Assembly (NCBI GenBank): GCA_965263035.1
Contig: OZ253580.1
Location: 2,112,001 to 2,176,000, forward strand
From: Acidobacteriota bacterium
Lineage (GTDB): Bacteria > Acidobacteriota > UBA6911 > RPQK01 > JAJDTT01
DNA length: 64,000 bases
Reading direction: 5' to 3'
Below, piece after piece: positions 1 through 58,366 of this stretch. The notes below the pieces were generated by a model, which was given only the letters and a program-made list of their open reading frames with translations, searched no databases and was not told the origin of the DNA. The position numbers and the translations under genes are program-made. Every line of letters starts with the position of its first letter. Position 1 is the stretch's first letter.

Positions 1-1074
1 TCTCCGGTCTTCGTGCGCGCCGTACATGCCGTCATAGCGCCGCAGGTAGTCACCGATCGCAGCGACTGTCTTCTCCTGCGCTTTCATTTTGCGAACCGGT
101 TTCATGAACGCGTTTGCCAACGTGCGCGGTTGGTGTTCCCCGACTTCTCCCAGCACGAACTCGGCGCAAGCATAGGGAGCCGTCGCTCCCAGCTTTGCCC
201 CCGGCGAGACGGTCGCGATCAGATGGATCAACCGGCGTAAAACCTCTGCTGCCAGCGCGCGGTCTTCCGACAGGTTGCTGACCAGCTGACGTAGATCAAC
301 GACGACATAGGAGTAGAACAGGCCGCTGGTCAGCTCACTGGTATTGATATGGCCGGAACCGAGTTCGCCCTCGGCGGTGGCCAAGTCATCCAAAGCCGAG
401 AAATAATCTGGTTCGGCCTCTTCGGCGTGTACGGTGAAGCTGTGAGCGACGTGCACGGCGGCATCGCTACGAGCCATCACGTCGGACGTCACCATTCGGC
501 CGAAGAGCGAGGCATCCAACCCGGCGCCAAGACGCAGAGCCTTCAAGTTGTCGCGTTTCTTCCTGTCCTTGAAATAGGCAGCGACTGCCTTGGCCACGTC
601 GTCAGCATCGCCTTGGGCAAGCTCCGTGGCCAAGGTAGTAAGAAAGGTGATTTCTGGTGGGCCCAGTACGATGACTTGCTCCGTATGCAAATCCGCAAGA
701 AGATCTCCTCCTGTTTTGGCGGCCTGCTTGTCCTTGCGAGCCTGTTTGGCCTTGATGCTTTCGCCGAGTACGGCAGAGCGAATCGGCGTGAGGACGTTGA
801 AGATCTGCTCTTCCGACAGGTGCTGTTTCTTTAGCCGGCCCGCAATCTCATCACTGAACACGCGCCGGGAGCGGACGGATCGGCCAGAGCCCAGATCCTG
901 CAACGACCACTCACCCGTTGCCTCACGCCAGTGTCGCTTCAGGCACTGGGACGAGACACGGATGCGATCGCAACCGCCAAACGGCAGACGCTTAGCCCGA
1001 CCGATATCATCGCGGTTCAGGAGCGTAGCGGAATACCCGGTGAGGGTGTGAATTTGTAGGAAACGAGGGTTCAT
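1..1074 (-). CDS. cas7: Type I-E Cascade backbone Cas7/Cse4 (3' end truncated by window edge; absent from ORF track)
   Basis: Manual translation from ATG at 1074: MNPRFLQIHTLTGYSATLLNRDDIGRAKRLPFGGCDRIRVSSQCLKRHWR...FGRMVTSD...AAVHVAHSFTVH...DYFSALDDL...GSGHINTSELTSGLFYSYVVVD; AGGAG RBS upstream. Confidence 0.95.
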   Translation of the reverse strand, partial: MNPRFLQIHTLTGYSATLLNRDDIGRAKRLPFGGCDRIRVSSQCLKRHWREATGEWSLQDLGSGRSVRSRRVFSDEIAGRLKKQHLSEEQIFNVLTPIRSAVLGESIKAKQARKDKQAAKTGGDLLADLHTEQVIVLGPPEITFLTTLATELAQGDADDVAKAVAAYFKDRKKRDNLKALRLGAGLDASLFGRMVTSDVMARSDAAVHVAHSFTVHAEEAEPDYFSALDDLATAEGELGSGHINTSELTSGLFYSYVVVDLRQLVSNLSEDRALAAEVLRRLIHLIATVSPGAKLGATAPYACAEFVLGEVGEHQPRTLANAFMKPVRKMKAQEKTVAAIGDYLRRYDGMYGAHEDRR

Positions 1075-1111
1075 GGTTGTTTCTGCTCCTTAGAAAATTT
1101 GAATCCGCGAA

Positions 1112-1684
1112 CTAGGATTGAGTGGCTTGAGCACGGAAATAGTCACGCGCCAGTTGGTGGATGGTGAATTCGGTTTGAATGCCCCTGTTCCGGGACTGAC
1201 CGAGCAACAGGCGAGCGGGCTGTACCCAGTTGGCCGCGCTGACGCCTTTTCGAGCGAGCCAGACTCCTGCGGTGCGTACCTCACGAGCCAGGTTCTCGCC
1301 TTCAGCGCGCAGCAATCGAACGAAACGATCTTCGGAATAGCCTGATTCAGCCAGCGCGGTCCCGAACGGCCGGTCGAACGAATGCGGGTTCGGCGCCATC
1401 TGGACCATCGCGCGGATCAGGGCCGCCCAGGCCAAGTCGACGCGTCGGTCAGGTCGGCCCACTGGTTCGCGCCACTCCGGCGGCACAACATCATTGGTCA
1501 AGTAGAGCCTCCAAAACGCCGGCGGCAACTCGCCACGCGAGATACGGCGAAGCTCGGCCAACTCTCCGGGGCCGATCCTGTCGGCATTCAAACGGTACGA
1601 AATAGTGGCGATCACTTGGCCTAAGCGCCGCGGCTCGGCCGGGTCATTTGAGATTGGCTTTCCAGCCACAACTTCCGTGCTCAC
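1112..1684 (-). CDS. cse2: Type I-E small subunit Cas11/Cse2 (CasB)
   Basis: GPGELAELRR, PAFWRL, GYSEDRFVRLLRA and LARDYF motifs; lies between cas8e and cas7. Confidence 0.88.
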   Translation of the reverse strand: MSTEVVAGKPISNDPAEPRRLGQVIATISYRLNADRIGPGELAELRRISRGELPPAFWRLYLTNDVVPPEWREPVGRPDRRVDLAWAALIRAMVQMAPNPHSFDRPFGTALAESGYSEDRFVRLLRAEGENLAREVRTAGVWLARKGVSAANWVQPARLLLGQSRNRGIQTEFTIHQLARDYFRAQATQS

Positions 1685-3249
1685 GAGGATCTCTCCTTCG
1701 AGTGTTGAGTGGGAAAGGCATCGGGCAGGTGCTTGCGCAAGCCACCGTACAGTACTGCTTCAGACTTGGCGCGAGCCTTCTCTCGCCGCGCACTGGGTGG
1801 CGACGTGCGGCTCCAAACCGCGTTCGCCAGCCTGACGGCTTCCTCCCGCAGAAATTGCTGCCAGCGACGGCTGGTTTCGTCGATGCCTTCGGTCGGCGCG
1901 GCGAACAGGGAATCGAAAAATCGCACGTCAATCGCACGATCGTATTTCGCCACGATCGGTGTGGCATCTCGTCTTTGGAAGTTGGGGTTTTCCGGGCCTT
2001 GCAGGTAGACAAGCACGGCCTGCCGCAGCACCCGTCGCGCCTCGCCGGCCAGGGAAACCATATTCTCCGAAAGTTTGGCCAACGGAAGCTTATTGTCCCA
2101 GTCATCTTCGTCGTCAGAGTCAAATAGCCTGACTGCCACCGAATACGACAGCGGGATGACACGTTCATGCAACCCTTCCGTTTTTCCCTGGCCTCGCACC
2201 AGCACCGTCATATGGATCTCAGAATCCTGTCCTCTCTCGCCAGGTAACTCCCTCAAAGACAGTGGTTTTGTCAACTCCCTGCGGTTGAACAAGATGCGTT
2301 GTGCCAAGCGGTAATCGAAGCCATTCGCGCTGACGGTAAGTGATGATTGGCCACCTTTCCCAAGATTGATCGGCACCCACGGGTCGCCCAAATTCCCTTT
2401 CAACGCCCGGGCCTGCACGCGGGTCTTGTTGGCAGGGAGCCCGAGCGCTCGAATACGCCCCTCCGGTCCGGTCGTCAGTCGCACTCGGCGACAGACTTCG
2501 ATGAAGTACGGATCTAGGTCACGCAGATTGAGTTGGACATCCGTATCCCAGTTCTGAAGCCAAGTGATCGCCAAACCCCCATCGGATCGGAAGAGGTCAT
2601 CGCTGACCCTCTCAAGCAGCTCCGAACGACGATTGAGGAGCATGCGTATGGATCGCACGATCCGCGGTCCCCATCGCGCGCTCGGCCGCCGATCGACGAG
2701 GACACGACTGGCTAGGCCTCCGTTCATTCGGGCAATGCCGGGATTTCGACGGCCGGAGTAGCCTTGGCTGGTTTGGAGTGTGACCAACGCGTAAAGCCAG
2801 GAGTGTGGTGCGGCGGCCGTTGCCTGAGCCTGTTTGCGGTCGTGGTTTTTGGCCGTCACCAGTACGTCGAGCGCGTCCGGTGTCTCTGCGACGAGCTTGA
2901 ATTGGTCGACCCTCTTCGTTGGCGGCTGAAGCAATGCTGGCTTGGACGCGTTCGCGGCCACCAGACTCCAAGCGGTGTCCGCACATTCGGGAGTCAACTC
3001 GGCCAGCGATGCCCGCCAGTCCTTCGAGGCACCGGGCAGATCTGTTCGGCCTACACGATGCAAAGCAATCGCGCCGAGCTGCGCCAGGAACTGATACCAG
3101 GCTTGCGCTTGGTGCGCGGTCAATCCGGGGAACGCGTCGACGGAATCGCTCACGAGTCGACCGAACAGCTCAGGCAACGTCACCGGGTCCGGTTCCCGCT
3201 TTCCATTGGACACAACTGGCACGAGTGCTTCGGTTAGTAAATCAAACAC
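1681..3249 (-). CDS. cse1: Type I-E large subunit Cas8e/Cse1 (CasA)
   Basis: N-terminal FDLLTEALVPV, TPDALDVLVTAKNHD, GIARMNGG, PYFIEVCRRVRL, GDPW and RGQGKTEG motifs; operon position. Confidence 0.9.
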   Translation of the reverse strand: MFDLLTEALVPVVSNGKREPDPVTLPELFGRLVSDSVDAFPGLTAHQAQAWYQFLAQLGAIALHRVGRTDLPGASKDWRASLAELTPECADTAWSLVAANASKPALLQPPTKRVDQFKLVAETPDALDVLVTAKNHDRKQAQATAAAPHSWLYALVTLQTSQGYSGRRNPGIARMNGGLASRVLVDRRPSARWGPRIVRSIRMLLNRRSELLERVSDDLFRSDGGLAITWLQNWDTDVQLNLRDLDPYFIEVCRRVRLTTGPEGRIRALGLPANKTRVQARALKGNLGDPWVPINLGKGGQSSLTVSANGFDYRLAQRILFNRRELTKPLSLRELPGERGQDSEIHMTVLVRGQGKTEGLHERVIPLSYSVAVRLFDSDDEDDWDNKLPLAKLSENMVSLAGEARRVLRQAVLVYLQGPENPNFQRRDATPIVAKYDRAIDVRFFDSLFAAPTEGIDETSRRWQQFLREEAVRLANAVWSRTSPPSARREKARAKSEAVLYGGLRKHLPDAFPTQHSKERSS

Positions 3250-3279
3250 CGCTTATGTTTTCTCCTTGTTTCCCCATCT

Positions 3280-3416
3280 GCGACGCCCCCTCCAATGGGC
3301 GGACCTTTGATGCTCGTTCGCGAAGCTCACCTGACCTCGCGACCCCCGCATCTGCGGGGATGGACCCGCTGCCTGCTACGCGGTGCAAGCTTCCCCGTAT
3401 TGACGGGGACTAGGAA
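3280..3416 (+). CRISPR. Degenerate type I-E mini-array (two clear repeats and one possible decayed repeat), antisense to the cas genes
   Basis: 3339-3367 GCGACCCCCGCATCTGCGGGGATGGACCC and 3388-3416 AGCTTCCCCGTATTGACGGGGACTAGGAA both carry the I-E CCCCGn-4nt-nCGGGG hairpin; 20-nt spacer between them; weaker copy at 3280-3305 followed by 33 nt. Confidence 0.72.
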
Positions 3417-3436
3417 CAGCGGTGCTGTACCAACTC

Positions 3437-6055
3437 CTAATCACTTACGCGAACGAGCCCGAAGCGGTCGTACCGAAAATCATGCGATCCGAAGCGAAAT
3501 CGGATCGTATGCGAGCGGACATCAACGACCTCCACCTCTCCATCCTCTGTCGTCTCGCCGACCATCCAACCCGGTATGCTCAACGTACGCACCAACTGGC
3601 CGAAGGGGCCGAGGAGGGGTTCGGGCAGTTTCACGCGGTGGTCCTTGAGACCAAGACGCGTTTCGGCACGCTGATCCGAAACCGGCTGGTTATCGATCAG
3701 CGGTTCTTCCCAGCGGATTGCGACAGTATTGGCTCCCTGTCCCTCGGCCAACCTCTGGCCTTCCACGGATTGTAGATGTGTCGGCCAGATGCTGCCGAGC
3801 CGTTCGGCGTGGGCGTACAAGGCGGCATAATGAGTGGCAGTTTCAACGACCGCCCGGTTGTCGGCCGGAATGTGGATCTTTCCTCGAGCAACCAACCAGT
3901 CGCGGACGGCCAGAACACCAACGATGTTTTCGTAAACGCTGCCCAAGCCCAGCAATGTGCGCCCGCGCGGACTGCCAGTGCGCGAGTTCAAGGTGCCGGC
4001 AAGTTGCGCGGCCGTCGGCGCCAGCACAGTAATCCTCGCGTCTTCGAAACCAATCGGTCTGGGACGCTGGTGGCGGTGCAGACGACCGATGCGCTGTAGC
4101 AATACGTCGCCTGGTGCAATGTCGGTCACCAACCAATCCGCGCATATGTCGAGCGACTGCTCGGCCGTCTGTGTGGTTACTGCCACGACGCCGGATCGCT
4201 CTCCCTTGGGGAACGCGTTTTCCAGCGCATTATCAAGCAGTCGCCGGTCCTCTGGAGCGAATCGTCCGTGGTGCGGCGCAATCGTGCCCTCACAGCGCAA
4301 CAGACGAGTATTCCTCTCCTCCAGGCGTCGCACTGTCTCCTGCGCGTCGTCAACCCGGTTGCGAATGAACAGTACCGCCGCTCCCGCGGCCGCGGCGGCT
4401 TTGAGATGATCCAGCAGGACCGGGAAGTCAGATTCCGGATCGATCAACTCCACCACAACACTCTTTTCGCGTCCATCGCGGACCACCGACCGGAGAGGTT
4501 CGTCCGTGCGCTGCAACGAGGGATAGTGCAGCGCCGAAGCGTCCGAGACTCCGGGAACCGTGTGGGCCTCGATACGGCCAGCCAATAGACGCATCCGAGC
4601 TTGCGATCCCAGCGTTGCCGACATCAACAACGCATGCCCTCCGGACTTCGTGTGCTGGTTGAGCACGTTGCGCAACAGTGTCGTCATATAAGCGTCGGAG
4701 GCATGCACCTCGTCTATGCACAGCAGGAGGCGCAACATCGGGCCGGAGCGGAACGGAGCATGTCGCACGCGCAGTCCGCCCATCAAAACTTGATCGACGG
4801 TGCCCACCATCACCGCGCCGGAAAGATAACGCTTGGCGTTCTCCACCGCCCAAGTACGATCTCGGTCGGTTTCATCTGGCCAAAGAACGTCGTACGTGTC
4901 GGGCAGGGGCTGGCCTTCGTCCTCATCTACTCGAAGGTAGCCGGGCACCGCCAAACCTACTGGCGGAGTAGCTTCCCCGAACCAGCGCCGGAGCATGGCC
5001 CGGATGCGGCCGTGAATCTGAATAGCCGCTGCCCGGGTCGGTAGTGCGAAATAGAGGCCGTCGACCTGACCGGACTGGAATAGGCGCAGGAAGTGGATGA
5101 GTGCAGCCTCGGTTTTTCCGGAACCCGTTTCAGCCTCCAGTATTGTCGTTTGTCCCGGTTCGGGTAATGGCATGCTCAGCAACGCCTCTTGCGCGGGCCT
5201 GGGCCTGGTCAGGTCCGGGAAGAGTATCTTGAACTCCGCGACGAGTCCCCTAGCCGCATTTCGCGCGCGAGTCGGATCCAGCCACCGCCGCTTGATCAGA
5301 TCTGCTGCCTGCTGGCGGGCCCAAGGAATGCGAGCCTCCCCGGAAGGAATCGTTTTGTCCGGGCACAAGAACACCGTGGGGTCCGATCCAAGCCAGTCCG
5401 CGAGCGTGATCATGCCAGCGAGCGCATGCAGGAAGCGGGGGCTGTCCGGGAGCGTTTCATCGGGCTCGTCAGCGAATGCCTCCGAGAACATGTTCGTCAT
5501 GATCTGCGCAAGTTCAGAAAGAGCAACAAGCGGGTCGTATCCGTCGCGCTGCTGCCAGAGACTCGGGTCGGGCCGGGTCGACAGGTTGGCGGGGAGGCTT
5601 CCATGGTGGGCAAGCACCGCATTCCAAATCTCGACTTCCGCCTCCCAGTCCACATTCCAACGACGCCAAAGTGAAGCAGTGAGGGATTTACGCACCCGCT
5701 TGCGGAGCAAATAATGGCTACTGTGGACAGGGGAACCGCATAAGACGGACCATACTGGCTGGATGTGTCCACAGTCCGGCTTCCGGCGTTGCAAGCGCGC
5801 CTGGAAGCCGTGATTTGCCTTGCCCACATCATGGAGTCCGATGAAGAATCCGAGACGAGCGACATCGACATCCGAGAGATCGCGCTTGGCGAGTGCGCCG
5901 AGACGCGACGCCACCGTGGGCAATCGAAACAGTGTTTCGGCGACTGCGGCGACGTCGATCGAATGATCGACAAGACTGAGCCACCCGGACCGGGATTTTG
6001 CCCAGGCCCGTCCTGCTTTCTCCAATTCTGCCACTGCGTTGATCTCTGGCGCCAT
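3437..6055 (-). CDS. cas3: CRISPR-associated helicase/nuclease Cas3 (HD + SF2)
   Basis: WAKS, HSIDVA, LHDVGKA, LAHHG, LADWLGS HD domain; AETGSGKT, DEVH, MSAT and QRIGRLHRH helicase motifs. Confidence 0.97.
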   Translation of the reverse strand: MAPEINAVAELEKAGRAWAKSRSGWLSLVDHSIDVAAVAETLFRLPTVASRLGALAKRDLSDVDVARLGFFIGLHDVGKANHGFQARLQRRKPDCGHIQPVWSVLCGSPVHSSHYLLRKRVRKSLTASLWRRWNVDWEAEVEIWNAVLAHHGSLPANLSTRPDPSLWQQRDGYDPLVALSELAQIMTNMFSEAFADEPDETLPDSPRFLHALAGMITLADWLGSDPTVFLCPDKTIPSGEARIPWARQQAADLIKRRWLDPTRARNAARGLVAEFKILFPDLTRPRPAQEALLSMPLPEPGQTTILEAETGSGKTEAALIHFLRLFQSGQVDGLYFALPTRAAAIQIHGRIRAMLRRWFGEATPPVGLAVPGYLRVDEDEGQPLPDTYDVLWPDETDRDRTWAVENAKRYLSGAVMVGTVDQVLMGGLRVRHAPFRSGPMLRLLLCIDEVHASDAYMTTLLRNVLNQHTKSGGHALLMSATLGSQARMRLLAGRIEAHTVPGVSDASALHYPSLQRTDEPLRSVVRDGREKSVVVELIDPESDFPVLLDHLKAAAAAGAAVLFIRNRVDDAQETVRRLEERNTRLLRCEGTIAPHHGRFAPEDRRLLDNALENAFPKGERSGVVAVTTQTAEQSLDICADWLVTDIAPGDVLLQRIGRLHRHQRPRPIGFEDARITVLAPTAAQLAGTLNSRTGSPRGRTLLGLGSVYENIVGVLAVRDWLVARGKIHIPADNRAVVETATHYAALYAHAERLGSIWPTHLQSVEGQRLAEGQGANTVAIRWEEPLIDNQPVSDQRAETRLGLKDHRVKLPEPLLGPFGQLVRTLSIPGWMVGETTEDGEVEVVDVRSHTIRFRFGSHDFRYDRFGLVRVSD

Positions 6056-6127
6056 CGTCGAATCTCAGCACGTTCTGTGCCGAGGTTCTATAAACTTGAG
6101 AGAGGCTTAAAGGGCACGATAAAGGAT

Positions 6128-6133
6128 ATTATA
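6128..6133 (-). promoter_or_regulatory. Candidate -10 box (TATAAT) for the cas operon
   Basis: Perfect TATAAT on the minus strand about 75 bp upstream of the cas3 start, in AT-rich DNA; no good -35. Confidence 0.35.
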
Positions 6134-6512
6134 CAACCTTATTTCTGGCCTAGATCTGGAACCGGAGGCCAGGATCCCGAGTTCAAGCTGATGGTTTGAT
6201 CCACCTAGTTGACAGCCCTGAAGGCCCTGCATCCAGCCGGGAAATCCGGGCATGGTCGACGATCGGCGGCTGGCGCTGAACACCCTGTCTTGAGTCCCTG
6301 GAGCCGTCTCGAACTCCGGATCCGCGCCGGTGAGGGACGTCCGCGGCGGTCTTGAGGCCGATGCCTTTCCCTGATGCTGCTAGCTGGAGGCCCAGTGCCG
6401 TCAAGAAGCCATGAGCCAGCATCAAGCTTCGGATGCGGTACGTGGCAGCGGCGTCCGGCGGCCTCGTAGTAACAATATCGGGAGGAATTTACGACTATTA
6501 CTAGTTTGTGGT

Positions 6513-6743
6513 TCAGAGAACTGAGCTACCTGCTTCGGCTCTGCTCCGTCCCTCGCCTGTTGCGACTGGTCTGGACTCAAGCCATTCGTCGATATCGGAC
6601 CTAAGCCAGCCAACGGCACGACTCCCGAGTTGAAAGGAAGACGGGAACTTACCCTGTTTTTGGAGTCGCCAAATTGTGGCTCGGCTGAGCCCGACTACTT
6701 GACAGACTTGATTTGCTCGGAGGATTTGCGGTTGGACGTTCAT
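6513..6743 (-). CDS. alpA: AlpA-family transcriptional regulator / excisionase
   Basis: ILRANQVCQVVGLSRATIWRLQKQGKFPSSFQLGSRAVGWLRSDIDEWL is the AlpA signature; adjacent to the integrase. Confidence 0.92.
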   Translation of the reverse strand: MNVQPQILRANQVCQVVGLSRATIWRLQKQGKFPSSFQLGSRAVGWLRSDIDEWLESRPVATGEGRSRAEAGSSVL

Positions 6744-6923
6744 TCAAGGACTCCTTTCGTCGAAGCCATCTCCTTCGCAAATGGATGGCTTGCGTCGAGT
6801 TCTAGAGTCCTATCAAATGTCCGACCCTATCTGAGATCAGACACTAGAACCTGTAAACTTATCTTGTAACCTAAGCTTCGTAACCTTGTTACCTTCCATT
6901 TTCTCATACTTCTAAATGCGGTG

Positions 6924-8075
6924 TCAAGCGATATAATTCGCCCAGTGCCCCATCAATTCGCGTCGCCGCGCGAACATATCAGATCGAAAATAGGCGCCTT
7001 CAACACCCTTGACGGTGTGCGCCAGACAAGCTTCTGCGACTTCCCGCGCTGCCCCGGTGTCGCCACACCAATCTCGGAAACTGGACCGGAAGCCATGCGG
7101 CACCGCCGGGATGCCGTTTTCTCTGATGAGCTTGGAAATCGTCGAATCGCTCAACGTCCGCCCGCTCGGACTCGGAAACACCAGCCCGGAACCGTCCGCG
7201 AATTTCAACACCTCGTTAAGCACTTCGAGAGCCCGTTTCGACAACGGCACCCGGTGCTCCCGCCGGGTCTTCATGCGCTTGCCCGGTATGGTCCAAGTCG
7301 GTTTCGAAAGGTCCACTTCCTTCCACCGAGCGCCCCGAACCTCACCGGAGCGACAAGCCGTTAGCACAATGAACTCAAACGCAAGCACCGTGGCCCGGTA
7401 GGCACCCGACTGTCGAACTTTCTTAATCGCGGCCCCGACTTCACCATGCGGGAGGGCCCTATGGTGCTGGCGGCGAACACCGTTTTTCGGGAGAGCCGCC
7501 CCGATGACTTCTCCGGCCGGATTGTCTTGACGGTAGTTCTGGGCCACCGCCCATTTCATGACGGCGCCGATGCGTTGCCGCACCCGTCGAGCCGTCTCCC
7601 GCTTCTCGTTCCAGATTGGAAGGAGCACGGCCAGCACGTCAGCCGTCGTTATCTTGTCCACGCGCTTGCGCCCCAGTATCGGCATGGCGTAGTCACGGAG
7701 ACTCGCCCGCCATTGCGCCTCAGATTTGCCGCCGGGCCGCCACGTCGCCGCATGAATTCGGATGACCTTATCGGCGGCTTTCTCAAACGTCGGAATGCCG
7801 CCGCCGCGCGGGTCGCGTCCTTGGTGGACGGCCCGGCGGTTAACCAGCGCCGCGTTGCGAGCCTCGGCCAGCGTGACCACTGGATAGATGCCAAGGCCAA
7901 TGTTGAATGGCTTGCCGTTCATTCTGAGCCGCTGCGACCATGTTTTGGAGAGTCGCCCGGATGCGGTAGGCTTGACCAAGATGCTCAAACCATGCCCACC
8001 GCGCCCGTCTCCATACCGGCCCGGTCGGTTGATGGATCTAACGAAAGATGCCGAAAGTTGCTTGGGACGTTTCAT
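6924..8075 (-). CDS. P4-like tyrosine integrase with N-terminal arm-binding domain
   Basis: PGRYGDG..GL..GLG.YP.VTLAEAR arm domain; catalytic ACRSGE, MKTRREH, HGFRSSFRDW, LAH and AY residues. Confidence 0.96.
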   Translation of the reverse strand: MKRPKQLSASFVRSINRPGRYGDGRGGHGLSILVKPTASGRLSKTWSQRLRMNGKPFNIGLGIYPVVTLAEARNAALVNRRAVHQGRDPRGGGIPTFEKAADKVIRIHAATWRPGGKSEAQWRASLRDYAMPILGRKRVDKITTADVLAVLLPIWNEKRETARRVRQRIGAVMKWAVAQNYRQDNPAGEVIGAALPKNGVRRQHHRALPHGEVGAAIKKVRQSGAYRATVLAFEFIVLTACRSGEVRGARWKEVDLSKPTWTIPGKRMKTRREHRVPLSKRALEVLNEVLKFADGSGLVFPSPSGRTLSDSTISKLIRENGIPAVPHGFRSSFRDWCGDTGAAREVAEACLAHTVKGVEGAYFRSDMFARRRELMGHWANYIA

Positions 8076-8199
8076 TTCGATATTATCTCCATTATCACTA
8101 TATTGGAGAGATTACACGAAACGGAGTGAAACGTCAATGGACATCAAAGATTTGATTATAAAAGAGTTAGGTGGACTTTCTGAGACGAATAGAAACTGA

Positions 8200-9330
8200 T
8201 CAAAACCCTATAATGGCGGACACCCGTTCCGCCACGATTTGCGCTTCCCCCGGCGCCAACGTCGCCGGGTTGAGAAGAATGCCGGCCGGCGTCTCCGCCA
8301 CGACGATGCTGGGGTCACCCTCCCACAGCTCCGCCATCACCGGCCCGGGGCTCTTGGCGATTCGTTCCGAGTCCCACTCCACAAGAGTGAACGGCAGCCC
8401 GTCGGGATGCACGGCCAATCCCGTCGATGCGGGAGGCGAGCCTCCCTTCCACGCCCGGACACCCGGCACCTGGGACAGAGTCTCGATCATGGCGTCGGAA
8501 AGCAGACGCCACCGGTCGAACATCTTCCGCTCGAAATCAGGCTCGGACCAGAGCTCCACGGCGGTCAGCAGCCCCACGATCTCTTCCTTGCCCACCTTCA
8601 TTGGGCGCCCCACCCCGTGGTTGGGGCTGCTGTTCATGGCGCAGGCCTCCACCAGATCCTTCCGGCCCAGGATCAGCCCCGAAGACTGGGGGCCCCGCAG
8701 ACCCTTGCCGCCGCTGAATATGGTGAGATCGGCTCCCAGCTTCCAGTAGTGGCTCAGGATCGAAAAGGGAGGAAACTCGGCCGCCGCATCCACGATCACC
8801 GGGACCCCGCGGGCATGCGCCAGTTCGATGACCTGATCGATGGGCAGATCGGTGGGGGGCGAATAGGCGGGAAAGTGAACGACGGCAACCGTCTGGGGAG
8901 TGAAGGCCGCCTCCAGATGCCACGGATACACACGATTGGCCAGACCGACGGGTACGATCCTGGCTCCCGCCAGCCGAATCATGAGCTCGTAGAAGTTGAT
9001 CTGCATCCTTTGGACGATGACCTCGTCCTTCATCCCGGCGGTGCCGGGCAACTGATGGACTCGCGCGTTGCTTGATCCCGCCATGCATGCGGCCACGGAT
9101 AGCGCGACGCCGGCGGCGGCACCATTGGTGACGTAACAGGCTTCGACCCCCGCCAGCTCGGCGATCCGGTTCCCCGCCTTCTCCAGCAGTTCCGGCATGC
9201 TGACGTAGGAACGGCCGGCCTCCCGCATCGCCGCCACCACCTCCGGGAGCATGATGGACCCGCCGATGGAGGTCCCGTTGGCGGCCGCGTTGATCCGTTT
9301 CCGCACACCCAAGTGGTCGTAAACGCCCAT
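8200..9330 (-). CDS. SelA-like PLP-dependent enzyme (D-glucosaminate-6-phosphate ammonia-lyase/DgaE-like)
   Basis: INAAANGTSIGGS, VTNGAAAG, VDAAAE, FSGGKGLRGPQSSG (PLP Lys) and GRPMKVGKEEI; start taken at MGVYDHLG with GGAG RBS. Confidence 0.88.
   Translation of the reverse strand: MGVYDHLGVRKRINAAANGTSIGGSIMLPEVVAAMREAGRSYVSMPELLEKAGNRIAELAGVEACYVTNGAAAGVALSVAACMAGSSNARVHQLPGTAGMKDEVIVQRMQINFYELMIRLAGARIVPVGLANRVYPWHLEAAFTPQTVAVVHFPAYSPPTDLPIDQVIELAHARGVPVIVDAAAEFPPFSILSHYWKLGADLTIFSGGKGLRGPQSSGLILGRKDLVEACAMNSSPNHGVGRPMKVGKEEIVGLLTAVELWSEPDFERKMFDRWRLLSDAMIETLSQVPGVRAWKGGSPPASTGLAVHPDGLPFTLVEWDSERIAKSPGPVMAELWEGDPSIVVAETPAGILLNPATLAPGEAQIVAERVSAIIGF
8214..8234. other. Putative att core site TGGCGGA-CACCCGT-TCCGCCA
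   Basis: Perfect 7-bp inverted repeat around a 7-bp spacer, about 140 bp upstream of the integrase start, at the GC transition. Confidence 0.75.
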
Positions 9331-9460
9331 GGCTCTTCTCCCTTCCAAATCCCTTGCGTGAGTATAAGCCTCTATGATCGCTGCTGAGAAACAGGCCGGG
9401 GCGCCCCGGAGGGCGGACTTCCGGTCCACCATGCCTGCGTTCCGCCGTGCGCCGTCGGGA

Positions 9461-9541
9461 GTTCGGCGGCTGGAAACCGCCGTTCCCGTTCGGCGGCTGG
9501 AAACCGCCGCCCCTGTTCGGCGGTTGGAAACCGCCGCTCCT
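9461..9541 (+). repeat. Three tandem 27-bp REP-like hairpins GTTCGGCGG(C/T)TGGAAACCGCCG
   Basis: Copies at 9461, 9488 and 9515; related single copies near 29655-29688 and 44186-44214. Confidence 0.85.
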
Positions 9542-9562
9542 GGCGCTAACATTGTCCATACC

Positions 9563-10762
9563 ATGAATCGTCGCTATTGGCTCCGCATGGGGGCCGCCGC
9601 GGGAGCTATCTTGGGTCTTGACTCCCTTTTCACCACCCAGCACACGAGCGCGGCCGCCGTCGGTCCCAACGACAAGATCAAAGTGACCAAGATCGAGACC
9701 TTCGTGCTGACCAACTCCTGGGTCTTCGTCAAGGTGTCCACCGACGCCGGGATCGTGGGCTGGGGCGAGATGCTCAAGGACGACGCCAAGGCCTGCGCCG
9801 CCGGGGCTCTGGAGGTCGGTGACTATCTGGTGGGCCAGGATCCCTGCCGGGTCGTGCACCACTGGCAGGCCATCCACCGCGGCGCCTTCTACCGCGGCGG
9901 TCCCATCAAGACGGCGATCCTGAGCGGCATCGACCAGGCGCTCTGGGACATCAAGGGGAAGGTCTACGGCGTCCCGGTCTACAAGTTGCTGGGAGGGCCC
10001 ACTCGGGACCGCGTCCGAGTCTATGGGAAAGTCAGCGAGGAGACCGGCGTCAATGCGATGAAGGTCGGTCCAAACGCCATGGGACGCGCGCCGACCAAGT
10101 ACATCGAAGGCCAGAGATTCGTGGATGCCGTGGTGGAGAACTTCCGGGCGCTGCGCGAGAAGTATGGAGACGGCGTCGACATCGGCCTGGACTTCCACGG
10201 CGCCGTTCAGCCGCCGACGGCCATGCTCCTGGTCAAGGCGCTGGAACCCTACAATCCCTGGTTCTACGAGGAGGTCGTGCAAGCGCTCAACGTGGACGTG
10301 ATGGCCGAGATCGCCGCCAAGACCCACATCCCGCTGGCGACGGGCGAGCGCATCTTCACCAAATGGGGATTCCGCGAGATCCTGGAAAAGCGCGCCGCCC
10401 AGATCCTGCAGCCGGACGTCTGCTACGCGGGCGGCATCACCGAGCTCAGGCTAATCGCCGGCATGGCCGAGGCGTACTACTCGCCTCTGGCGCCCCACAA
10501 TCCCAGCGGCCCAGTGTCGCAGGCCGCGAGCCTCCAGATCGCAGGGTGCATCCCCAACTTCATGATCCAGGAGCGCGGCGACGTGGAGCACGATCTGCTG
10601 GCCAAACCGCTGGCCCCGGTCAGGAACGGACACCGCCCGTTGCCGACGGATCCCGGTCTCGGCATCACCATCGACGAGGACAAGTTGATGGCGAGGGTCG
10701 GCGAACCCCGCGAGGGCCGGACCATTTACGATGCGGACGACGGGTCGGTCGTCGACTGGTAG
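9563..10762 (+). CDS. Mandelate racemase/galactonate dehydratase (DgoD-like) enolase-superfamily enzyme with Tat-like leader
   Basis: TDAGIVGWGE, SGIDQALWDIKGK, LDFHG, YEE, ATGER, QPD..YAGGITE and APHNP motifs; MNRRYWLR leader. Confidence 0.9.
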   Translation: MNRRYWLRMGAAAGAILGLDSLFTTQHTSAAAVGPNDKIKVTKIETFVLTNSWVFVKVSTDAGIVGWGEMLKDDAKACAAGALEVGDYLVGQDPCRVVHHWQAIHRGAFYRGGPIKTAILSGIDQALWDIKGKVYGVPVYKLLGGPTRDRVRVYGKVSEETGVNAMKVGPNAMGRAPTKYIEGQRFVDAVVENFRALREKYGDGVDIGLDFHGAVQPPTAMLLVKALEPYNPWFYEEVVQALNVDVMAEIAAKTHIPLATGERIFTKWGFREILEKRAAQILQPDVCYAGGITELRLIAGMAEAYYSPLAPHNPSGPVSQAASLQIAGCIPNFMIQERGDVEHDLLAKPLAPVRNGHRPLPTDPGLGITIDEDKLMARVGEPREGRTIYDADDGSVVDW

Positions 10763-10826
10763 TCCTCCCATCCCCGGGCCGCCGACCGCACAGCGGCTGG
10801 AGAGAACTCAAGACCGGAAAGAAACA

Positions 10827-12068
10827 ATGACCAAAGTGAACCTCTTGACCGCTGTTCCGTTCCTCCTTCTCATCCTTCCCGTCCAAGCCAAGGAAAAGCT
10901 CATGATCCTGAGCTGGGGGGACGTCATCTGGCAACACAAAGGGGAGGGGACGGCTCAACTCGACACTCCCGAAAAAGTGGCCGAGGCGGCCCGGATCTGG
11001 AAGGAGCGGGGAGTGGACCGGGTCCTGTTCCGGGCCGACGACTTCCGAGTCCTCCTCTTTCACCGCATCCGGCCCGGCTACAACAACGCCTACGCCCAGG
11101 AGTGGTTGGAGACGACCAAGCGAGCCTGGGAACAGGGGTTGCTGGAGGTCGCCGTCAAGGCCATCCACGAGCAGGGCATGAAGGTCGACATGTGGATCAC
11201 CATCTTCGATGAGGGGTGCCCGGAGCACGTTCTCTACAGCGATTCCGATTTTTTCTCCTGGCAATCGCATTTCACCCGGGAGAACCCGCACGTCCTCTCC
11301 GCCGACCGGTCTCTGACCGCCAATCAACGAAAAGTTCACTGGGGCGTGATGGAGTATGCCTACCCCGAGGTGAGGGGCTACATGCTGAGCGTGATCCGCG
11401 CTTTCTCCGATCCTCTGGATTTCGATGGTGTCTTCCTCAGCGTGCGCTCCCATTCGCCGCCTGCCGAACACGCCGACCAGTTCGGGTTCAACGAGCCCGT
11501 CGTCAAGGAGTTTCAGCGCAGATACGGCAGGAACATTCTCCAGACCAGCTTCGATCTGGAGAAGTGGCGGGAGCTCCGGGGCGAGTACCTGACCCAGTTT
11601 CTCGGTGAGGTGAAGGAGCACCTCCGGAAGAAGAGGCAGACCCTTTCCATCGGCGTGGCGCAGGGAGACCATATCGGTCCTCCTTTCGGCAACATGAAAC
11701 TGCAATGGCGCCGGTGGATCTCCGAGGGGATCATCGACTCCCTGGTGGTGGGTCATATCACCAACGAGAGAGCCCGTTATCCCAACCGCACCCAGAGAGC
11801 CATGGGGTACATCCAGAACCAGGAAGAGGACATGGGCCTTCCGCCCATCGAGGACGCCGTGCGTTTGAGCTACGGTCCGCTCTGCAAGCGTTTCGGAGTG
11901 GGCCTCTACCTGGCACCCGGAGGTTTCCGCATGAGCTTCCGCCATCCCGCCTACGGAAGAGGCTCGCAGACGCCCGAGGTCCGCAAGAGCCTCGACGAGG
12001 CGTTCGAGAAAGAGCCCGCCGTGACGGGAACCGTCCACAGTTATGGGTCGGTCATGGAAGAACGGTAG
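10827..12068 (+). CDS. Secreted GH10-like (DUF187-type) TIM-barrel protein
   Basis: Signal peptide; AIHEQGMKV..W, EYAYPEVR.Y and DFDGVFL motifs. Confidence 0.6.
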   Translation: MTKVNLLTAVPFLLLILPVQAKEKLMILSWGDVIWQHKGEGTAQLDTPEKVAEAARIWKERGVDRVLFRADDFRVLLFHRIRPGYNNAYAQEWLETTKRAWEQGLLEVAVKAIHEQGMKVDMWITIFDEGCPEHVLYSDSDFFSWQSHFTRENPHVLSADRSLTANQRKVHWGVMEYAYPEVRGYMLSVIRAFSDPLDFDGVFLSVRSHSPPAEHADQFGFNEPVVKEFQRRYGRNILQTSFDLEKWRELRGEYLTQFLGEVKEHLRKKRQTLSIGVAQGDHIGPPFGNMKLQWRRWISEGIIDSLVVGHITNERARYPNRTQRAMGYIQNQEEDMGLPPIEDAVRLSYGPLCKRFGVGLYLAPGGFRMSFRHPAYGRGSQTPEVRKSLDEAFEKEPAVTGTVHSYGSVMEER

Positions 12069-58160: not shown

Positions 58161-58305
58161 TGTTGACCCGGAAGAACTGGGCCGGGTTTCCCTACCCCGA
58201 CTCGTTATCGTCGTAAGTATAGAACGTGAAACGTCCGATCAGAACCAAGGATTTACGAGGATATCCGACAATGGCGAAGAGTCGGCGCTTCAGGGTCGGG
58301 GTTGA

Positions 58306-58364
58306 GGAGGGGGACAGGAATGTCCCCCTCCCATGAAGAGGGGGACAAGGATGTCCCCCCTCCC
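58306..58364 (+). repeat. Two tandem REP-like hairpins GGGGGACA-N4-TGTCCCC; may act as terminator of the TonB receptor gene
   Basis: Copies at 58306-58331 and 58338-58364, immediately after the receptor stop. Confidence 0.7.
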
Positions 58365-58366
58365 AT

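Follow-up and report, generated by a model that had tools for sequence, protein, structure and literature searches.

In Salmonella enterica, creR, a degenerate mini-CRISPR located upstream of casA, represses the casA promoter through Cascade by means of a 15-nt match that adjoins AAG, and for this S. enterica creR the Cascade-dependent repression of the cas promoter without cleavage has been published in E. coli (Liu et al., bioRxiv 10.1101/2023.03.10.532045). At a larger scale, mini-arrays have been reported between cas3 and cas8 in about 19% of the bacterial I-E loci, where they are transcribed against the direction of cas3 and the cas8 promoter contains partial targets for them (Shmakov et al., PMC10120712). 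A comparable arrangement is that of CreTA in type I-B (as cited in bioRxiv 10.1101/2023.03.10.532045), in which Cascade is brought to a promoter by a crRNA-like RNA that has two degenerate repeats and pairs with its target in part. With respect to the length of the guide, an engineered spacer that is 12 nt shorter than normal yields a defined Cascade with two fewer Cas7 and one fewer Cse2 subunit, and odd multiples of 6 nt assemble poorly in such engineered complexes (Songailiene et al. 2019, PMC6859484); in E. coli, shortened crRNAs have been found to undergo both processing and loading (Kuznedelov et al. 2016, PMC5159557).

The window that is the subject of this analysis is the whole stretch of 64,000 nucleotides of Acidobacteriota DNA shown above, and the element under study lies in the gap between the cas3 and cas8e genes of a type I-E operon. 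A sequence-only reading of the window had described this element as a degenerate mini-array, antisense to the cas genes, and had suggested that its RNA guides Cascade either to regulate cas expression or to act as an antitoxin. We consider it likely that the element is a CreR-type mini-CRISPR homologue that has been stranded in this genome by loss of the segment with its target and promoter. On the evidence of the sequence, it is a CreR-type mini-array by descent and anatomy that lacks the functional feature by which such elements are defined: two degenerate units and one spacer-like stretch are present in the cas3-cas8e gap, and the complementary decay of the two units is seen in the window and across the loci (8/8), but the window is without a partial target that adjoins a PAM and lies at the effector promoter, whereas all related carriers have a flanked target (7/7), which overlaps a promoter-like site in three of the six scanned.

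The likeness to CreR thus concerns the presence of a degenerate mini-CRISPR in the cas3-cas8e (casA) region, in which the first unit (psiR1) keeps the eight letters of the handle and the second unit (psiR2) the hairpin of the 3' handle and, in the relatives, a spacer with partial complementarity to a site that adjoins a PAM at the Cascade operon promoter, with no toxin gene evident. The differences are that the flank in the relatives reads AA-T or AA-C and not AAG, that the match in the relatives comprises 14-15 of 17 scored positions with interspersed mismatches whereas that of creR comprises 15 consecutive letters, that three of the eight copies have a spacer that is exactly 12 nt shorter, and that the window copy has neither target nor promoter, the defining regulatory pairing being absent from it. 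With the regulatory mini-arrays of types I-E and I-F1 described by Shmakov et al., the elements share the location, the orientation opposite to cas3, the better-kept repeat adjoining the seed, the partial target in the cas8 promoter, the mismatches that recur every six positions and spacers that may fall short of the normal length. The clade described here occurs in metagenome-assembled genomes labelled Acidobacteriota, Alphaproteobacteria and Gammaproteobacteria, and the passages of PMC10120712 on these mini-arrays make no mention of a stranded copy without a target. CreTA differs in subtype (I-B versus I-E), in its toxin gene, of which none was found here, and in its target, which in the relatives is the cas8e promoter itself.

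The type I-E operon and its main array

The type I-E operon within which the window begins is intact and is encoded on the minus strand; it comprises, from left to right, cas7 (1-1074, running past the window edge), cse2 (1112-1684), cas8e, i.e. cse1 (1681-3249; 522 aa, GTG start; TIGR02547, E 3e-29), and cas3 (3437-6055; 872 aa, with the Cas3 HD and helicase domains), the latter two being separated by a gap of 187 bp (3250-3436). In the genome, left of the window, follow cas5, cas6e, cas1 and cas2 (intact) and then the main array, which is found where the sequence-only reading expected it, about 3 kb left of the window (genome 2108054-2109000). It has 16 repeats with a period of 61, lies on the cas strand, and its repeat reads, in the crRNA sense, GTTTC CCCCGC ACAG GCGGGG ATGGACC plus one variable letter N. 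The adjacent spacers 8 and 9 are identical, which implies that a repeat-spacer unit was duplicated. At the variable last position of the repeat, with which the 33-nt units begin, C, G and T occur, and A is seen in none of the 15 spacers. In E. coli, the last repeat letter derives from the PAM; if that applies here, the absence of A is compatible with the AA-T or AA-C flanks of the targets described below. The 15 array spacers have no self-matches in the genome with up to seven mismatches, and viral scans returned 0 matches for each of three main-array spacers, which were searched in order to learn the PAM, and 0 matches for the mini-array itself.

Lone repeats occur elsewhere in the genome, outside the window. 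Two of these are copies of the main-array repeat that are remote from the cas locus (positions 140360 and 155568 of G000:C1); the same sequence of at least about 150 nt follows both, and the main array's trailer recurs in a copy ahead of the one at 155568. They look like parts of the array that a mobile element has displaced or broken up. A further lone repeat, I-E-like but of another type (…GTTCCCCGCACACGCGGGGATGAAC…), is located without an array 14.5 kb left of the window (G000:C1 2097515, plus strand; L020:1504-1561), and the covariance model of the mini-array (see below) gives it 21.8 bits.

About 870 nt upstream of cas3 there is a tyrosine integrase gene (6924-8075, minus strand). This integrase, the distribution of the locus, which is patchy among phyla, and its occurrence in one of eight other genomes of the genus fit a mobile island. 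The tRNA scan of window positions 1-12000 detected no tRNA genes. A promoter-like site is found far upstream of cas3 (6927-6898, minus strand), and the 3' end of the cas3 coding sequence includes a terminator-like hairpin with a T-rich tail (3485-3507, minus strand). Tandem repeats occur at 9461-9542 (27 nt, three copies, 90% matches) and at 58303-58366 (31 nt, two copies).

Anatomy of the mini-array

On the plus strand, the element consists of psiR1 (3339-3367; GCGAC CCCCGC ATCT GCGGGG ATGGACCC, with a 6-bp hairpin), a psi-spacer of 20 nt (3368-3387; 21 nt when position 3367, the variable last repeat letter, is counted) and psiR2 (3388-3416; AGCTT CCCCGT ATTG ACGGGG ACTAGGAA). The two 29-nt units with their hairpins, the size of the gap and the short spacer are as the sequence-only reading gave them, and so is the compensatory change of a C-G to a T-A pair between the stems of the two units; the closest relative, locus L001, has a wobble T.G at that pair in both units. 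The reported orientation, opposite to the cas genes, is borne out by the covariance model, which scores the window element at 82 bits on the plus strand versus 29 bits on the minus strand; the mini-array points into the 3' end of cas3.

An alignment of the units to the main repeat, which the sequence-only reading had called for, shows that psiR1 is identical to it in the stem (12/12) and in the handle (8/8), but on the opposite strand. The hairpin of psiR1 is followed by ATGGACC(C), the 5' handle of a would-be crRNA-like RNA, and its first five letters are decayed (GCGAC versus GTTTC in the main repeat). In psiR2 the hairpin alone is kept, and the eight letters at its 3' side are unrelated to the handle (1/8). 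Counted by hand, the identity to the main repeat is 23/29 for unit 1 and 14/29 for unit 2. In local alignments to the main repeat, the score of unit 1 was reached by 3 of 25,584 sequence windows, presumably overlapping windows on unit 1 itself, and that of unit 2 alone by 921 of 25,584, which is weak; we accept unit 2 as real because of its position and its conservation in the relatives. The pattern CCCCGC-N4-GCGGGG with one mismatch has 2 matches in the window versus 1.6 expected. Since a hairpin of this kind is not rare, the case for the element rests on the handle and on conservation. An ordinary type I-E array was rejected as a description, given that the units are divergent, lie on the opposite strand and are spaced at 49 nt instead of 61. 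A search of window positions 2500-7000 against Rfam at E <= 1 gave 0 matches.

The third, weaker unit that had been proposed upstream of these two (3280-3305, plus strand) did not survive: its score versus the main repeat was reached by 14,191 of 25,584 sequence windows, which is the chance level, and it sits in a segment that is absent from L001. For a nearby patch (3268-3282; GTTTCCCC..ATCTGCG), the score versus unit 1 was reached by 2,141 of 42,638 sequence windows and that versus the main repeat by 4,923 of 42,638; this patch is likewise within chance.

The mini-array is bracketed by a perfect 11-nt inverted repeat (3312-3322 and 3448-3458; GCTCGTTCGCG and CGCGAACGAGC). Of its two arms, the right one falls within the final codons of cas3 and the left one within the segment that is specific to the window (see below); the repeat may be the trace of a rearrangement.

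Conservation among related loci

A search with Cas8e yielded 16 related loci in metagenome-assembled genomes, with a Cas8e identity of 56-96% and with record titles that name Acidobacteriota, Vicinamibacterales, Bryobacterales, Alphaproteobacteria, Gammaproteobacteria and Rhodothermales. The conservation check that the sequence-only reading had suggested for related cas3-cas8e gaps came out in favor of the element: two units are found in 7 of the 16 loci (L001, L003, L009, L010, L011, L013 and L015), in the same gap and antisense to the cas genes. Among these, L001 is the closest relative of the window (96% identical), whereas L011 and L015, with Cas8e identities of 60% and 56%, respectively, are distant relatives. 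A covariance model made from the eight copies, i.e. that of the window and those of the seven carriers, gives the mini-arrays 69-90 bits and true arrays 38-50 bits, and it detected none in the gaps of the other nine loci at E <= 1.

Within the alignment, which was fitted to the model and thereby leans toward the structure, and whose eight sequences are related, 95.8% of the stem cells are paired and the covariation score was reached by 1 of 500 shuffles. The closing pair of helix 1 occurs as C-G, G-C, A-U, U-A, G-U and U-G. Helix 2 is paired in 48/48 cells over the eight loci, with a closing pair that is C-G in six, U-A in one and U-G in one. The decay of the two units is complementary in all eight copies: psiR1 has kept [A/T]TG[G/A]ACC and lost the 5' flank, and psiR2 has kept the hairpin and part of the 5' flank and lost the handle. 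The parts that were kept are those that a single crRNA-like RNA would need.

The gap sequence was found in one of 100 other genomes searched, which appears to be the carrier of L001. A metagenome pattern scan for further copies returned five matches, all of which were rejected as chance matches to unrelated sequence without the hairpins.

Targets and promoters in the relatives

To locate potential targets, the 21-nt spacer of each carrier was scored at every position on both strands of its own locus (about 9.5 kb). Spacer positions 6, 12 and 18 were left out of account, and the matches are given out of 17 scored positions. In all seven carriers, the best non-self match reaches 14-15/17, the second-best being 12-13. 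The target is on the strand of the mini-array, 91-102 nt upstream of the end of the handle (175 nt in L009), and it is preceded by AA and then T in six loci and by AA and then C in L013. With the same scoring, five unrelated control loci, taken from the metagenome pattern scan, gave best matches of 11-13 and an AA flank in none.

In three of the six loci that were scanned for promoters, the target overlaps a promoter-like site in the sense of cas8e, of which it covers the -35 element and the promoter spacer: TTGAAA-17-TAATAT in L001, TTTACA-17-CATATT in L003 and TTGACA-17-TACACT in L011. These calls are consensus matches, and the scan sees sigma-70-like sites only; by its criteria no promoter-like site overlaps the target in L009, L013 and L015. 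In L010, the seventh carrier, the target lies about 20 nt before the start of cas8e. The gene that is targeted in the relatives, cas8e, is the first of the operon. The notion of a crRNA-like regulator that guides Cascade to a promoter therefore receives support at the level of the family, through the targets in 7/7 carriers and the promoter overlap in 3/6 scanned loci, but not for the copy in the window, in which the target segment is replaced.

Between the targeted promoter and cas8e, L001 has a leader of about 290 nt (L001:3715-4000, plus strand), in which a long hairpin followed by a strong ribosome-binding site and a frame of 14 codons can be recognized by eye ahead of cas8e.

The corresponding segment in the window

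The alignment of the window with L001 runs through cas8e to its start, ends at 3250, resumes at 3334 and continues through the mini-array into cas3. In between, the window has 83 nt (3251-3333) that are unrelated to the 355 nt present in L001, which include the promoter and the target. A homology to L001 left of 3334 that was proposed by eye was rejected, as its score was reached by 286 of 500 shuffles. The alignment argues that the segment carrying promoter and target was replaced in the window, and the state of the window can be inferred to be derived, as all seven other carriers have the target. The 83-nt segment includes the ribosome-binding site of cas8e (AAGGAG, 3262-3267, minus strand), and there are no promoter-like sites on either strand of window positions 3000-3700. 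In the locus (14 kb), the best non-self match of the window spacer is 13/17, located inside cas3 with TC-T in front.

In a DNA run, a contig with 8 differences from the window in 1001 letters has the short gap as well, without insertions or deletions, which indicates that the short gap is not peculiar to the assembly. The allele of the L001 type is found in three metatranscriptome libraries (X17-X19), in contigs of 7.1-9.8 kb with a word depth of 71-78, in which 401 letters replace window positions 3214-3342; this material consists of contigs, represents the L001-type allele and may include DNA carry-over, and is therefore no evidence of expression.

The sequence-only reading had stated that a target was not evident in the window. 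That is correct for the locus and at the same time an understatement, as the segment in question has been exchanged and the entire genome (6.2 Mb) offers no substitute. Autoregulation of the cas genes in this genome, which it had put forward as well, is not supported for the same two reasons. The self-repression loop has most likely been lost here, as judged from the missing operator, and cas8e probably depends on read-through from cas3.

The divergence of the element from L001 is about 10%, like that of the flanking genes, and both hairpins are perfectly Watson-Crick paired in the window, whereas L001 has wobble pairs. The fact that no decay is visible points either to a recent loss of the target or to continued use of, or selection for, the hairpins.

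Spacer length

The distance between ATGGACC and the stem of psiR2 is 38 nt in the main array, L001, L009 and L013, 37 nt in L003, 39 nt in L010, and 26 nt in the window, L011 and L015. The letters missing from the window in comparison with L001, whose spacer measures 32-33 nt, number exactly 12 and belong to the far part of the spacer. This far part does not match the target in the long-form spacers, and the 5' part of the spacer is semi-conserved across the loci. Judging from these alignments, the 20-nt spacer arose from a full-length form of 32-33 nt by a deletion of 12 nt and is not the original state. The shortening probably arose more than once, in view of the fact that the nearest relative of the window has the long form and that L011 and L015 are distant.

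The step of 12 nt fits the 12-nt periodicity of Cascade. In analogy with the engineered complexes, of which the natural copies are reminiscent in that they are either full length (37-39) or 12 nt shorter (26), we infer that the RNA of the window copy would assemble into a Cascade of the -12 type; the engineered cases concern laboratory constructs in E. coli and S. thermophilus (PMC6859484, PMC5159557), whereas here the RNA would be a natural one.

Proposed mode of action and alternative explanations

In the relatives, transcription would produce an RNA antisense to cas3, Cas6e would cut it after each of the hairpins, and Cascade would take up the product, whose 5' handle would be ATGGACC(N). 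Some 20 matching letters could then hold Cascade at the AA-flanked site over the -35 element and promoter spacer of the cas8e promoter, and binding without full pairing would lead to repression of the Cascade operon and not to cutting. In the window, a segment of about 355 nt with the cas8e promoter, the target and the mini-array's own promoter would have given way to 83 unrelated nt, leaving a copy with intact hairpins and handle that could be processed if transcribed, and that has no partner site.

Alternatively, the mini-array might still work in trans, either at the promoter of some other gene or, when a related I-E island enters the cell, at the cas8e promoter of that island; we regard this as unlikely. 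Such a role would agree with the intact handle and hairpins, both stems of which are perfect, and with the window spacer, which still matches the L001-type target at 14/17; moreover, Shmakov et al. (PMC10120712) consider other genomic targets possible and short matches sufficient, and a short seed match with another PAM is conceivable. Nevertheless, the genome contains no match above chance: there are none of at least 15/17, and the nine matches of 14/17 all lack AA in front, eight being located in long reading frames and the ninth in tRNA-like sequence. The search for PAM-adjacent seeds that the sequence-only reading had recommended was likewise unproductive at the scale of the genome, since seed and partial matches stayed at the chance level; the best seed match (AGG plus 11 nt, genome 2860229) lies in sequence that by eye resembles a tRNA-Ser gene. 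A promoter-like site that could drive the mini-array is also lacking from the gap region scanned. A specific form of action in trans, which we put forward as speculation and hold to be quite improbable, is that the stranded mini-array persists because it silences the Cascade operon of an incoming related I-E island (inter-island exclusion) or serves as a decoy that buffers Cascade, its RNA being loaded in a shortened Cascade with four Cas7 and one Cse2, and its 21-nt guide fitting the ancestral AA-T operator at 14/17. If true, the exact 12-nt shortening in three lineages would be a natural sign of a smaller Cascade for regulatory guides.

The hairpins might also act on the sense (cas) strand, within an RNA that reads through from cas3 into cas8e, where they could attenuate or stabilize the transcript or bind Cas6e, such that cas8e would be coupled to the levels of Cas6e. 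The stems read the same on both strands, folding of the minus strand gives z = -2.19, which is matched by 4 of 200 shuffles, the covariance model still gives 29 bits on that strand, and cas8e, having no visible promoter of its own, needs read-through across the element. We nonetheless judge this role to be very improbable: on the minus strand neither hairpin is followed by a T-run, no terminator-like site was called in the gap, and the conserved handle and the targets of the relatives make sense on the plus strand only.

Less credible still is a CreA-type antitoxin, which would repress a small toxin gene (CreT) and so make the cell dependent on Cascade. The architecture is that of CreA, and in L001 the 14-codon frame with its strong ribosome-binding site, seen by eye, is located between the targeted promoter and cas8e. 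The antitoxin proposal of the sequence-only reading finds no support, however, in the contents of the gap: the 83 nt between cas8e and psiR1 contain no toxin candidate, target, promoter or small frame, and, had the element controlled a toxin, the loss of the operator would have been lethal unless the toxin was lost together with it.

That the element is the never functional remnant of a decayed ordinary CRISPR array, or a chance pair of GC-rich hairpins, can hardly be maintained, because, in spite of the common hairpin pattern, the weak similarity of unit 2 to the repeat and the lone repeats elsewhere in the genome, the same element occurs in the same place and orientation in seven loci with Cas8e proteins that are only 56-96% identical, with complementary decay, compensatory stem changes and a target in cis in every one of these carriers.

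Implications

That Cascade can repress its own genes by means of a degenerate mini-CRISPR has been found recently and has been tested in few organisms. To this, the clade described here adds eight natural examples, from uncultured lineages of soil and water, with a flank other than AAG. The known picture is thereby extended and not changed. The natural spacers are only of full length or exactly 12 nt shorter, which matches the 12-nt assembly rule of the engineered complexes. With the CreR-type mini-array kept and its operator gone, the copy in the window amounts to a natural experiment, and a comparison with the relative that is 96% identical could show what the loop costs or benefits its carrier.
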